Shown piece by piece: positions 8,473-14,847 of a stretch of DNA of 64,000 nt. A program made the position numbers and the translations under genes. The stretch comes from Escherichia coli (GTDB taxonomy: Bacteria; Pseudomonadota; Gammaproteobacteria; Enterobacterales; Enterobacteriaceae), in NCBI RefSeq assembly GCF_050320075.1, contig NZ_CP190018.1, one strand, 5' to 3'. The first letter of the stretch is position 1, and each line of letters opens with the position of its first letter. The notes under the pieces are model-generated. The model ran no database searches. It was not told the DNA's origin and saw only the letters and a program-made list of their open reading frames with translations.

Positions 8473-8488
8473 ATTACACGATTGTAAT
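8473..8488. promoter_or_regulatory. Inverted repeat ATTACA-N4-TGTAAT in the divergent pcoE-like/pcoA promoter region; candidate copper-box for PcoR/CusR-type regulators
   Basis: Perfect palindrome read from sequence in an AT-rich divergent intergenic region; assignment to a regulator is inferred. Confidence 0.4.
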
Positions 8489-8605
8489 GAATTTGTTTCT
8501 TAAGGTGTGCTAGATTCATTTCATTGTAAGTGGATGAACCAGTAATTTAATTTAAATCGGTTCTCGAATTCTGTCAGTAACCATACTTTAAATAAGGGAA
8601 TGCGC

Positions 8606-10423
8606 ATGCTGTTGAAAACGTCTCGACGAACTTTCCTGAAGGGGTTAACCCTCTCTGGCGTAGCCGGAAGTCTTGGCGTATGGAGTTTCAATGCGCGTTC
8701 CAGTCTGAGCCTGCCAGTTGCCGCATCCCTGCAGGGTACTCAGTTTGACCTGACCATTGGTGAAACGGCCGTCAATATCACGGGCAGTGAGCGTCAGGCC
8801 AAAACAATCAATGGAGGCCTGCCGGGGCCCGTTCTTCGCTGGAAAGAAGGTGACACCATTACCCTGAAGGTCAAAAACCGTCTTAATGAACAGACGTCCA
8901 TTCACTGGCACGGCATTATTCTTCCGGCCAATATGGATGGTGTTCCGGGGCTGAGTTTTATGGGCATAGAGCCTGATGATACCTACGTTTACACCTTTAA
9001 GGTTAAGCAGAACGGGACTTACTGGTACCACAGCCATTCCGGTCTGCAGGAACAGGAGGGGGTATACGGTGCCATTATCATCGATGCCGGGGAGCCAGAA
9101 CCGTTTACTTACGATCGTGAGCATGTGGTCATGTTGTCTGACTGGACCGATGAAAATCCTCACAGCCTGCTGAAAAAATTAAAAAAACAGTCGGATTACT
9201 ACAATTTCAATAAACCAACCGTTGGCTCTTTTTTCCGCGACGTGAATACCAGGGGGCTGTCAGCCACCATTGCCGATCGGAAAATGTGGGCTGAAATGAA
9301 AATGAATCCGACTGACCTCGCGGATGTCAGTGGCTACACCTACACCTATCTCATGAACGGGCAGGCCCCGCTGAAAAACTGGACCGGACTGTTCCGTCCC
9401 GGTGAAAAGATACGCTTACGGTTTATCAACGGCTCGGCAATGACCTATTTCGATATCCGTATCCCCGGGCTGAAAATGACGGTCGTGGCTGCAGATGGCC
9501 AGTATGTAAACCCGGTTACCGTTGACGAATTCAGGATTGCCGTTGCCGAAACCTATGATGTCATTGTGGAGCCTCAGGGTGAGGCCTATACCATCTTCGC
9601 ACAATCCATGGACAGGACCGGTTACGCTCGAGGGACACTGGCCACGAGAGAGGGGTTAAGTGCTGCCGTTCCCCCCCTCGATCCCCGTCCTCTGTTGACC
9701 ATGGAAGATATGGGTATGGGGGGAATGGGACATGATATGGCAGGAATGGACCACAGCCAGATGGGAGGCATGGATAACAGCGGAGAGATGATGTCTATGG
9801 ACGGTGCTGGCCTTCCGGATAGCGGGACATCCTCCGCGCCCATGGATCACAGCAGCATGGCCGGTATGGATCATTCCCGGATGGCCGGAATGCCGGGTAT
9901 GCAAAGTCATCCTGCGTCAGAAACGGATAACCCACTGGTTGATATGCAGGCGATGAGCGTCTCTCCGAAATTAAATGATCCGGGTATTGGTCTTCGAAAT
10001 AACGGAAGAAAGGTTCTCACGTACGCGGATTTGAAAAGCCGCTTTGAGGATCCTGACGGACGTGAACCTGGCCGTACCATAGAACTGCATTTAACCGGCC
10101 ACATGGAAAAGTTTGCCTGGTCATTTAACGGAATCAAGTTTTCAGATGCCGCACCGGTGCTGCTGAAATACGGTGAGCGGCTCAGGATCACGCTGATCAA
10201 CGATACCATGATGACTCACCCCATTCACCTGCATGGTATGTGGAGCGATCTGGAAGATGAAAACGGTAATTTCATGGTTCGTAAACACACAATAGATGTT
10301 CCCCCTGGTACAAAACGCAGTTACAGAGTGACAGCAGATGCGCTTGGCCGCTGGGCGTATCACTGCCATTTGCTCTATCACATGGAAATGGGAATGTTTC
10401 GTGAAGTCCGGGTGGAGGAATGA
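8606..10423 (+). CDS. pcoA: Multicopper oxidase PcoA
   Basis: Twin-arginine signal (SRRTFLKG), cupredoxin His motifs (HWHG, HCHLLYH), Met-rich insert ([16 protein letters not shown]). Start may be 8600 or 8606. Confidence 0.92.
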
Positions 10424-10428
10424 TGCGA

Positions 10429-11319
10429 ATGAAGAGAAATTTGAAGGCCATACCTGTTCTGGTCGCCGGTTTGTTTACCTCACAGCTTTCTATTGCGGCG
10501 GGCTCCGTCTCTGCAGATCCCCACGCCGGGCACGACATGTCTGCCATGCAGATGCCAGCAGATGAGAATTTCACTGAGATGACGTCAATGGAGCCCATTG
10601 TAACTGAGAGCAGAACGCCAATTCCGCCTGTTACCGATGCCGACCGGAAGGCTGCATTCGGCAATTTACAGGGGCATGCGATTCACGACAGTGCGATTAA
10701 TTATCTGGTTCTGCTGGATCAACTGGAATGGCAACGGTCGGATAACACCAACAATTTCAGCTGGAGTGTTAACAGCTGGATTGGAGGCGACACAGATCGG
10801 ATTTGGCTAAAGAGTGAAGGTGAACGAAGCAATGGGGAAACGGAGGCGGCTGAAGCGCAGTTACTCTGGGGACATGCGGTTGGCCCATGGTGGGATTTGG
10901 TTGCGGGTGTCAGGCAGGATTTCAGACCTGCTTCTGCCCGGACCTGGGCTGCTGTCGGTTTTCAGGGGCTGGCACTCTATAATTTTGAGTCTGAAATTAC
11001 GGGTTTTGTCAGTAATGGCGGAAAAGCAGCCCTTCGTCTGGGAGGAGAATACGACGTTTTACTGACTAACCGGCTCATACTCCAGCCATCCTATGAGGTG
11101 AATTTCTACAGTCAGGATGATGAATCGCGGGGTCGCGGCAGGGGACTGACTGACACAGAGCTGGGGCTCCGGCTGCGCTATGAAATACGCCGTGAGTTTG
11201 CACCCTATATAGGCGTTTCCTGGAATCAACTTTACGGGAAAACATCCGATATGGCGAAAAGAGAAGGTGAGAAAGACCATCAGGTAGTATTCCTGGCGGG
11301 AGCCAGAATCTGGTTTTAA
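10429..11319 (+). CDS. pcoB: Copper resistance outer membrane protein PcoB
   Basis: Signal peptide, Met-rich N-region, C-terminal beta-barrel-like ending in F. Start could be 10420, 10423 or 10429. Confidence 0.88.
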
Positions 11320-11358
11320 CGCACTGATATAAAACACTCAACTAAACAGGTAAATAAA

Positions 11359-12673: not shown

Positions 12674-12727
12674 GGGACAGCCAAAGCTCATGCGTGAGAT
12701 TTTTACTTTCATATCAGCGAGTTGACC

Positions 12728-13408
12728 ATGCAGCGTATTTTAATCGTTGAAGACGAACAAAAAACAGGTCGTTACCTGCAGCAGGGACTGGTTGAGGAAG
12801 GCTATCAGGCCGATCTCTTTAATAATGGCCGCGATGGTCTCGGGGCCGCGTCGAAGGGACAGTATGATTTGATAATACTGGACGTGATGCTGCCTTTCCT
12901 CGACGGGTGGCAAATCATCAGCGCACTGAGGGAGTCCGGGCACGAAGAACCGGTCCTGTTTTTAACCGCAAAGGACAACGTGCGGGACAAAGTGAAAGGA
13001 CTGGAGCTTGGCGCAGATGACTACCTGATTAAGCCCTTTGATTTTACGGAGCTGGTTGCACGTGTAAGAACCCTACTGCGCCGGGCACGCTCGCAGGCCG
13101 CAACAGTCTGCACCATCGCCGATATGACCGTTGATATGGTGCGCCGGACCGTGATCCGTTCGGGGAAGAAGATCCATCTCACCGGTAAAGAATACGTTCT
13201 GCTTGAGTTGCTGCTGCAACGCACCGGAGAAGTGTTACCCAGGAGTCTTATCTCGTCCCTGGTCTGGAACATGAATTTTGACAGTGATACGAATGTGATT
13301 GATGTCGCCGTGAGACGTCTGAGAAGTAAAATTGATGATGACTTTGAGCCAAAACTGATCCATACCGTTCGCGGTGCCGGATATGTCCTGGAGATCAGAG
13401 AAGAGTGA
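12728..13408 (+). CDS. pcoR: OmpR-family response regulator PcoR
   Basis: Receiver domain ([17 protein letters not shown]) plus winged-helix output domain. Confidence 0.9.
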
Positions 13409-14805
13409 GGTTCAAAATTTCCCTGACCACACGCCTGAGCCTGATTTTTTCTGCGGTGATGCTTACGGTATGGTGGTTATCAAGTTTTATCCTGATTAGC
13501 ACCCTTAATGGCTATTTCGATAATCAGGACCGCGATTTTCTGACAGGTAAACTTCAGCTCACCGAAGAGTTTCTTAAAACAGAGACGTTCAGGAACAAAA
13601 CGGATATTAAGTCATTATCAGAAAAAATAAACGATGCGATGGTGGGGCACAATGGCTTATTCATTTCTATAAAAAACATGGAAAATGAAAAAATTGTTGA
13701 ACTCTATGCCAAAAATTCTGTTGTTCCAGCGGTCCTGCTTAATAAGTCGGGTGATATTCTCGACTATATGATCCAGACGGAAGAAAATAACACCGTGTAC
13801 CGCAGTATCTCGCGGCGGGTTGCCGTGACGCCGGAACAGGGTAAAAGCAAACATGTCATCATTACGGTTGCCACGGATACTGGGTATCACACCCTGTTTA
13901 TGGACAAACTCAGTACCTGGCTGTTCTGGTTCAATATCGGTCTGGTCTTTATTTCTGTTTTTCTGGGCTGGCTGACCACACGTATTGGTCTGAAACCGCT
14001 ACGGGAAATGACCAGTCTGGCTTCCTCCATGACCGTACACAGCCTGGATCAGCGTCTAAATCCCGATCTGGCTCCGCCGGAAATCTCTGAGACCATGCAG
14101 GAGTTCAATAATATGTTTGATCGCCTGGAGGGGGCATTCCGGAAACTGTCAGATTTCTCGTCTGACATCGCGCATGAGCTGCGCACACCAGTCAGTAATC
14201 TGATGATGCAGACGCAGTTTGCACTGGCTAAGGAAAGGGATGTTTCGCATTACCGCGAAATTTTATTCGCTAACCTGGAAGAACTGAAAAGGTTGTCACG
14301 AATGACCAGTGACATGCTTTTTCTGGCACGTTCAGAGCATGGTCTGCTGCGGCTGGATAAACATGATGTGGATCTGGCAGCCGAACTGAATGAATTACGT
14401 GAGTTGTTCGAGCCCCTGGCAGACGAAACAGGAAAGACAATCACGGTTGAAGGAGAGGGCGTTGTTGCCGGAGACAGCGATATGCTCCGACGTGCTTTCA
14501 GTAACCTGCTTTCCAATGCAATCAAGTATTCTCCCGATAACACCTGTACAGCGATACACCTTGAGCGTGACAGTGACTGTGTGAACGTGATGATTACGAA
14601 TACGATGTCCGGCCAGGTTCCCGCTAATCTGGAACGTTTGTTTGACCGGTTCTATCGCGCAGACTCATCAAGGTTCTACAACACGGAAGGCGCGGGGCTG
14701 GGATTATCAATTACAAGGTCGATCATTCATGCTCACGGCGGCGAGCTGTCAGCAGAACAGCAGGGGCGTGAAATTGTGTTCAAAGTGCGCCTGTTAATGG
14801 ATTAA
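13405..14805 (+). CDS. pcoS: Sensor histidine kinase PcoS
   Basis: Two TM segments; H-box ([11 protein letters not shown]); N and G boxes; 4-bp overlap with pcoR. Confidence 0.9.
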
Positions 14806-14831
14806 TCCCGTTGTTCAGGAGAAACCTGGAA

Positions 14832-14847
14832 GGTGACAAAATTGTCA
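14832..14847. promoter_or_regulatory. Copper-box-like palindrome GTGACAA-AA-TTGTCAT upstream of pcoE
   Basis: Matches the remembered CusR/PcoR box core (TGACAA-NN-TTGTCA); lies about 175 bp upstream of the pcoE start. Confidence 0.5.

Follow-up and report, generated by a model that had tools for sequence, protein, structure and literature searches.

The copper-box operators of the pco genes are said to have been described more than 25 years ago, by Rouch and Brown in 1997 and by Munson in 2000, and the operators of pcoA and pcoE, together with their differing regulator inputs, are already known biology. According to the papers concerned, PcoRS is the main regulator of pcoABCD (PMC7558416, PMC5008109, PMC10141476), production of PcoE is under the control of CusRS (the same three, citing Munson 2000), and TGACAAnnTTGTCAT in the pcoE promoter is the target of direct control by Escherichia coli CusR (PMC11195947, also citing Munson 2000). 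Here, we consider two palindromes in a 64,000-nucleotide stretch of E. coli DNA (assembly GCF_050320075.1, contig NZ_CP190018.1; the whole stretch is called the window): ATTACA-N4-TGTAAT ahead of pcoA (box A) and a TGACA-N4-TGTCA-type dyad ahead of pcoE (box E), which the original prediction had taken for two distinct operator types. We consider it very probable that these dyads are the known copper boxes of pco, lying within the sil-pco copper/silver island (CHASRI), and that they represent two related promoter classes.

Several described systems offer points of comparison. The E. coli CusR box of cusRS-cusCFBA (AAAATGACAAnnTTGTCATTTT) and the SilR boxes of PsilC and PsilE share with box E the core TGACAA-NN-TTGTCA, and their promoters share with that of pcoE a (T/A)GTCA(C/T) element and a TAnnnT 33 nt past the box. 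The CusR box differs from box E in its outer arms, which are AAAA..TTTT rather than a degenerate GAAGG..CATCA, and in its first base, A rather than G; it also drives a divergent pair, whereas box E drives one gene and lies directly past the pcoS stop codon. On the side of pcoA, the Pseudomonas CopR box is CTGACAn5GTAAT (PRODORIC, as quoted in PMC11195947). It starts with C where box A has A, and is mostly asymmetric (CTGACA/TGTAAT) where box A is fully symmetric (ATTACA/TGTAAT); moreover, the pco island has two such boxes and a divergent pcoF. A further comparison is with the E. coli hiuH-hprR box, CATTACAAAATTGTAATG, where 16 of 18 positions agree with box A and its flanks (CATTACACGATTGTAATG), all positions of the 7-bp arms among them, and only two central spacer bases and the downstream genes differ. 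HprR and CusR can each bind to it, with differing affinities (PMC9302797, PMC8249747). Lastly, the accessory CusR palindrome of P. paraeruginosa, ATTCATnnATGTAAT, which is common to CusR, CopR and CzcR, serves a pcoA2 operon on a mobile element, with a GTAAT-type half-site and a divergent spacer like that of pco; there, however, one box with another left half-site serves both promoters, where the pco island has two, and pcoA2 is cross-regulated by core and accessory two-component systems (PMC11195947). Cross-recognition within the PcoR/CusR regulator clade is thus a documented theme (PMC9302797, PMC8249747, PMC11195947, PMC12428095).

Two promoter classes at pcoA and pcoE

Box A stands exactly where it was originally reported, at 8473-8488 (ATTACACGATTGTAAT, ATTACA-CGAT-TGTAAT), and its arms extend to 7 bp (CATTACA/TGTAATG, the 18-bp form at 8472-8489). 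To place it we drew on a PcoA scan of species-representative genomes, which gave 80 loci at 70-99% protein identity in Pantoea, Enterobacter, Mangrovibacter, Chimaeribacter and many Pseudomonas; counts refer to the 400 bp upstream of 79 copA/pcoA genes, or to the 63 unique promoters among them. An unbiased count of gapped 6-N4-6 words across the 79 loci placed CTGACA....TGTAAT (28 loci) and CTTACA....TGTAAT (13 loci) among the commonest words outside start-codon-proximal sequence, and the combined pattern (A/C)T(G/T)ACA-N4-TGTAAT is found in 74 of the 79, at 105-202 bp ahead of the gene. Box A fits this pattern at 12 of 12 specified positions, and a further site, box F, to which we return below, at 11 of 12. 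The right half-site is TGTAAT in all 63 unique promoters, most of which also carry a TnTGnnAnnnT block at +18..+28 past the box, corresponding to an extended -10. In the window, the extended -10 of PpcoA would be TG-c-TAGATT on the plus strand (8508-8516, with TG at 8508-8509 and the hexamer at 8511-8516), and the 22 nt separating box A from this hexamer is the consensus offset of most of the 63. Because box, spacing and -10 are conserved in such distant copA promoters, the pcoA dyad is, as far as sequence can tell, a CopR/PcoR-type copper box, and PcoR would be the protein that binds it. The Pseudomonas loci have their box mostly 155-202 bp upstream of the gene, a range which matches that of the DNase I footprints of P. 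putida CopR1 and CopR2 on copA2, -185 to -159 relative to its start codon (PMC12428095).

Box E, GTGACAAAATTGTCAT, is also present, although shifted rightward by a base, to 14833-14848 from the 14832-14847 first given; within it lies a perfect 6-N2-6 dyad, TGACAA-AA-TTGTCA, at 14834-14847. Its resemblance to the CusR box, noted originally, agrees with the published CusR target cited above, and the surrounding promoter points the same way. PpcoE aligns over some 55 bp with PsilC and PsilE, both of which lie a short way upstream of the window, and with the PcusC of E. coli K-12, and these four, along with the cus promoter of E. ludwigii, have one layout in common: a ATGACAnnnnTGTCAT box, 5 nt, (T/A)GTCA(C/T), 22 nt and TAnnnT. 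At this same offset the five Cus-class promoters have the hexamers TATAAT, TATAAT, TAAAGT, TAAAGT and TAACAT, and the putative -10 of PpcoE is TATAAT at 14882-14887 on the plus strand, 33 nt past the box. We dropped TAAACA (14864-14869) as a candidate for this role, given that five out of five Cus-class promoters have TAnnnT at 33 nt. The (T/A)GTCA(C/T) element of pcoE, AGTCAC at 14854-14859 on the plus strand, is a putative third half-site, 5 nt past box E, which together with TGTCAT makes up an 11-bp direct repeat; its position relative to the -10 is that of the TGTAAT half in Cop-type boxes. All Cus/Sil-class promoters compared have such an element, in a direct repeat of the form TGTCAT-N5-TGTCAC, and it lies at about 7297 (PsilC) and 5016 (PsilE) of locus L001, and at about 3534 of L005 (PcusC).

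Whilst the pcoS-pcoE spacer is more uniformly conserved than the pcoF-pcoA spacer, box E does vary. About 2500 plasmid records have a pcoS-pcoE region with 90-95% identity to that of the window, and the three plasmids fetched from this band (two from Klebsiella and one from Enterobacter asburiae; L087, L088 and L090) all carry GTGACAAAAATGTCAT, in which a T to A change in the central spacer, equivalent to window position 14842, breaks the 6-bp dyad and leaves the 5-bp core intact, as in PsilE. TGACA-N4-TGTCA is retained in all box E variants, and this common Klebsiella form therefore identifies it as the invariant core.

How different, then, are the two boxes? Set in one register, box A (ATTACAcgatTGTAAT) and box E (GTGACAaaatTGTCAT) agree in length and geometry, and each half-site differs in a single base (ATTACA/TGTAAT at pcoA versus [A/G]TGACA/TGTCAT at pcoE). 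The pcoA dyad had been considered an operator of a different kind, yet it shares the 16-bp register and the family of box E, and is a canonical CopR/PcoR box. Nor does the T or G at position 3 of the left half-site discriminate, as had been assumed, since the 63 unique copA promoters are split there between G (37) and T (26). It is the promoter-proximal half-site that holds firm, being TGTAAT in 63 of 63 copA promoters versus TGTCAT in five out of five Cus-class promoters, and when the promoters are aligned on their -10, the Cus-type palindrome lies 11 bp farther upstream than the Cop-type box. On the sequences compared, the classes are set apart by this half-site and by geometry, and not by the toggling G/T base. 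In place of the single 'CusR/PcoR box' first envisaged there are two promoter classes, in which the CusR box and the PcoR box are distinct; and the 'two operator types' are better put as two variants of one operator family in two promoter architectures, because register and geometry are shared and paralogous regulators share sites elsewhere.

Palindromy alone would not have led us here. The window has 22 perfect 6-N4-6 dyads, compared to 15.8 +/- 4.0 in shuffles, and 10% of shuffled versions of the AT-rich, 234-bp pcoF-pcoA spacer contain one; as this is not significant, the weight rests on specific sequence and conservation. Across five diverged sil-pco islands, 64 of 234 positions of this spacer vary, versus 1 of 24 half-site positions (hypergeometric P = 0.0033), and the half-sites of box A are invariant while its spacer varies. 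Both palindromes are conserved in orthologous promoters. With a Cop-type matrix, built from 33 copA-promoter sites of other genomes, the three best matches in the window lie at 14830, 8442 and 8470, all in pco promoter spacers and corresponding to the three pco boxes, with box E scoring highest (19.5) and box F 18.5. With a Cus-type matrix, built from the four sites of cusC, silC, silE and E. ludwigii, box E (14830, score 20.1) is the sole strong match in 64 kb, across which ATTACANNNNTGTAAT also has just one perfect match, box A. A consensus sigma-70 and terminator scan found nothing correctly oriented near the boxes, as expected of activator-dependent promoters. Elsewhere in the window, a weak box-like site lies inside pcoC (11554-11569; ATGAAAGGCATGTCAT, with 1 mismatch to ATGACANNNNTGTCAT), and a Cop-matrix score of 11.0 at 30238-30259 on the minus strand is at about shuffle level.

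These data also bear on whether the boxes could be chance palindromes of AT-rich spacers or repressor sites of the CopY type, an idea that we find scarcely credible. In its favour one could cite the abundance of 6-N4-6 dyads and the TACA....TGTA contained in box A, core letters which recur in the Gram-positive CopY/CopR 'cop box', TACAnnTGTA. However, chance would account neither for conservation in 74 of 79 loci nor for the depletion of half-site substitutions. The cop box, for its part, is a look-alike only: it has a spacer of N2, where box A has N4, and its repressor, CopY, is of a different protein family (PMC10141476, PMC7253601). A CopY-like gene is neither annotated nor called in the island, and this, together with the spacer, led us to rule out a CopY-type cop box for box A.

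A different objection concerns RNA. Box E and its flanks (14826-14855) form an extended imperfect palindrome that begins 21 nt past the pcoS stop codon, and read-through pcoABCDRS transcripts would hence carry a 3' hairpin. Could the dyad act mainly at this level, as a terminator or stabiliser at the 3' end of that transcript? The segment folds to -13.4 kcal/mol (z = -4.0), a stability reached by 0 of 200 shuffles, and the silS-silE junction has the same layout of stop codon, box and gene; for boxes A and F, folding stability does not exceed that of shuffles. Still, we regard such a role as improbable: the stem has no U-tract and the terminator scan found no terminator-like site, the same box occurs in the divergent, non-read-through spacers cusR-cusC and silR-silC, and any transcribed palindromic operator yields a hairpin as a by-product. 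The box is, moreover, published as a CusR target (PMC11195947).

Some features of the two inferred promoters deserve mention in their own right. Position 8514 makes the putative pcoA -10 TAGATT in the window and TAGCTT in the four other island variants compared; the former is nearer to TATAAT, and might raise basal or induced expression. Transcription would start at about 8523 for pcoA, 8405 on the minus strand for pcoF and 14894 for pcoE. The predicted 5' untranslated regions are long, at about 130 nt for pcoE (14888-15022) and about 83 nt for pcoA (8524-8605), and would reach 120-160 nt in most Pseudomonas copA loci. An Rfam search returned no RNA family in the promoter and untranslated regions, and two sub-threshold chance matches inside genes.

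Box F and the divergent pcoF promoter

The original inventory of two palindromes was sound insofar as both are conserved, but it missed a third box at 8445-8460. Box F (ATGACGTAAATGTAAT, ATGACG-TAAA-TGTAAT) surfaced in mismatch scans, 12 bp from box A, and is a second candidate CopR/PcoR-type box. In the five diverged islands its position 8450, G or A, is the only half-site position that varies, the A form being nearer to the consensus, and box F reads ATGACA in Citrobacter and in Pantoea-type loci. In the Citrobacter island, with just 81% identity across the pcoF-pcoA region, the half-sites of the two boxes are preserved (ATGACAtaaaTGTAAT and ATTACAcaatTGTAAT), and it is the flanks and spacers that differ.

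What is a second box doing ahead of pcoA? We think it probable that box F serves the divergent promoter of pcoF(-pcoG), because second boxes co-occur with divergent genes, a TAYGAT hexamer stands at a fixed distance, and PpcoF is reported to be regulated by PcoRS. Thus, six out of six Enterobacterales relatives whose PcoA is 73-77% identical combine two boxes with a divergent gene for a small secreted Met/His-rich protein, whose E. ludwigii copy is a PcoF homologue (53% identity over 49 residues, E = 1e-14); a second box occurs in just one Pseudomonas locus (L025), where the divergent gene is copR, and the one-box loci sampled have no divergent gene. Each of the ten two-box loci has TA(T/C)GAT on the divergent strand, at a distance from the distal box of 27 nt in nine and 26 nt in L020, even though the intervening sequence is unrelated between CHASRI and Pantoea-type loci. 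In the window, the putative -10 of PpcoF is TATGAT on the minus strand (8412-8417), 27 nt past box F and in an invariant block (8412-8428). PpcoF is reported in PMC4824010, citing a thesis, to respond to copper by induction and to be regulated by PcoRS.

On the other hand, boxes F and A might form a tandem pair on the pcoA promoter, bound cooperatively by two dimers, with pcoF either having no operator of its own or sharing the pair. The polarity of box F is the main doubt about our assignment, and a tandem pair directed at pcoA fits it equally well: the distal box has the same orientation at every locus with a divergent pcoF-like gene, and in ten out of ten two-box loci both boxes have their TGTAAT half facing pcoA. 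A shared operator has precedents too, as cusR-cusC and P. paraeruginosa cusR-pcoA2 each have a single box for both of their divergent promoters (PMC11195947). Yet no sampled locus has a second box unless it also has a divergent gene related to copper; the spacing of the two boxes is 28 bp in some lineages and 37 bp in others, whereas the distance from distal box to TAYGAT holds steady; and PpcoF is described as a separate promoter (PMC4824010). The tandem arrangement therefore strikes us as rather unlikely, and a box F that serves pcoF as the better account.

On the chromosomes of Pantoea, E. ludwigii and Chimaeribacter, cop clusters (L009-L012, L014 and L020) encode a 76-80-residue single-repeat protein divergent from copA (for example, on the minus strand of L010 at 9473-9703). 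Given that the E. ludwigii copy is homologous to PcoF, the divergent metal-sponge gene and the two-box spacer would predate the sil-pco island.

Regulators and the choice between boxes

Cognate regulators are encoded nearby, with pcoRS alongside pcoABCD, and silRS on the plasmid that also bears box E, some 8 kb upstream of the window. SilR (locus L001, 6527-7204) and CusR are 87% identical and have an identical recognition helix, DTNAIDVAVKRLR, whereas PcoR and CusR are 60% identical. The helix of PcoR ends in ..VRRLR, as in CopR-type regulators of related loci, and that of HprR in ..AIRRLR. Among the regulators of the PcoR/CusR clade in the fetched loci (including L005, L006 and L007-L086), 43 have ..RRLR, a set comprising PcoR, the CopR-type regulators and HprR, and 5 have ..KRLR, namely CusR, SilR and the CusR-like regulators of E. 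ludwigii and Pantoea. The RRLR regulators cluster with TGTAAT boxes at the loci checked, and four of the five KRLR regulators adjoin a TGACA-N4-TGTCA box (CusR, SilR and those of L010 and L012), the fifth gene being cut by a contig end. Perhaps, then, the Arg or Lys of the helix tracks the TGTAAT or TGTCAT box type, which we offer as a hypothesis only, considering the few independent lineages involved. The sole PcoR entry in the PDB, 2JZY, is its DNA-binding domain without DNA.

Would such regulators discriminate at all? At the other extreme stands a single operator family without real discrimination, in which each of boxes A, F and E would be bound by PcoR, by SilR/CusR and by the host's HprR, with the differences between boxes only tuning affinity and timing. 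Much can be said for it. The boxes share one register with one-base half-site differences, position 3 toggles among orthologous copA boxes, and the Cop-type matrix gives box E its highest score; the sequences recognised by CusR and by HprR are the same, with differences in affinity (PMC9302797, PMC8249747), three regulators meet on one P. paraeruginosa palindrome (PMC11195947), and P. putida has sites that are common to two CopRs (PMC12428095). Against this, reports have it that pcoE induction depends on CusRS and that the two systems are independent (PMC7558416, PMC10141476, PMC11195947), the proximal half-site separates copA from Cus-class promoters without exception, the distance from box to -10 differs by 11 bp between the classes, and the Lys/Arg difference in the helix tracks the box type. 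On balance, we hold a complete lack of discrimination to be possible but clearly the less likely account. The original expectation of different regulator inputs thus survives in part: PcoRS for pcoABCD and CusRS for pcoE are indeed what is reported, but as a matter of preference and architecture and not of exclusivity, given that CusR and HprR both bind the hiuH box. With one shared register and half-sites a single base apart, the choice of regulator would come down to preference and promoter geometry, and cross-recognition is likely.

Several observations count against two promoter classes with separate regulators, and must be weighed here. The fact that the Cop-type matrix ranks box E highest means that sequence leaves binding of PcoR at pcoE possible. 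Moreover, among 30 shuffles there was one with a matrix score as high as 19.0, and single scores are for this reason not decisive; it is the co-location of the top matches that counts. That the published copper box of pcoA is exactly 8473-8488 is something we presume, with support from its conservation. In E. coli, both CusR and HprR bind an ATTACA-type box (PMC9302797), such that one regulator for one box may be too clean a picture. Finally, 5'-RACE in P. putida put the start of copA2 27 bp from the start codon (PMC12428095), and a box-adjacent promoter would not fit there.

We posit the following scheme for two classes of copper box in the island. Its sequence, conservation, class membership and geometry were analysed here, and the control of pcoE by CusRS, that of pcoA and pcoF by PcoRS, and the binding of an ATTACA-type box by CusR and HprR are taken from the literature; the protein on each box in the island and the transcription starts we infer from homology and from that literature. 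Periplasmic copper would activate PcoS, and phosphorylated PcoR would bind boxes A and F, at around -50 to -35 of weak extended -10 promoters, and recruit RNA polymerase to pcoABCDRS and pcoFG. In parallel, CusS or SilS would activate CusR or SilR, which would bind box E and switch on pcoE, the periplasmic metal sponge. In E. coli the regulator activating box E would be CusR, and in hosts without chromosomal cusRS presumably the SilR of the island; Salmonella is such a host (PMC6543542), and pcoE there should depend on the island's own SilRS.

We could speculate further that the host is able to intervene. Since boxes A and F carry the half-sites of hiuH-hprR, an input from HprRS, which senses hydrogen peroxide and hypochlorous acid (H2O2/HOCl), is conceivable: this system might also switch on pco, or competition among PcoR, SilR, CusR and HprR might damp it, with the choice between paralogues made by the A or C of the proximal half-site, read by the Arg or Lys of the helix, and by the 11-bp shift of the Cus type. 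We would not put much weight on this idea, which we think more likely wrong than right by a wide measure.

The sil-pco island and what its switches may mean

Positions 1-15457 of the window are the distal part of the sil-pco island, in the order silA, a DUF411 gene, silP, pcoG and pcoF, followed by the divergent pcoABCD, pcoR, pcoS and pcoE. On the minus strand, pcoG encodes an M23 peptidase, and pcoF (7922-8371; named after PMC4824010) encodes a periplasmic protein that binds metal and is SilE/PcoE-like, with 38% identity to PcoE (E = 9e-20) and a sub-threshold match to the SilE model, so that the label 'pcoE-like/pcoA divergent region' under which the locus was first described is apt. On the plus strand, pcoA (8606-10423), the first gene of pcoABCDRS, encodes a multicopper oxidase (TIGR01480, 993 bits, in agreement with its annotation); pcoR (12728-13405) and pcoS (13405-14805) encode the response regulator and the sensor kinase, with the stop codon of the latter 27 nt ahead of box E; and pcoE (15023-15457) encodes the periplasmic copper-binding 'sponge'. 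The 7.8-kb pco part is 100% identical to that of a Salmonella Derby IncHI plasmid.

To a system whose operators have long been described, our additions are modest: the two promoter classes as defined by comparison, their separation by proximal half-site and spacing and not by the G/T base, and a probable operator for pcoF. The dependence of pcoE on the island's SilRS that is to be expected in Salmonella is also made explicit. The island is carried by thousands of Enterobacterales plasmids (the pco part is present in 2944 PLSDB plasmid records), often beside antibiotic-resistance genes, and how copper and silver throw these switches is therefore relevant to co-selection.

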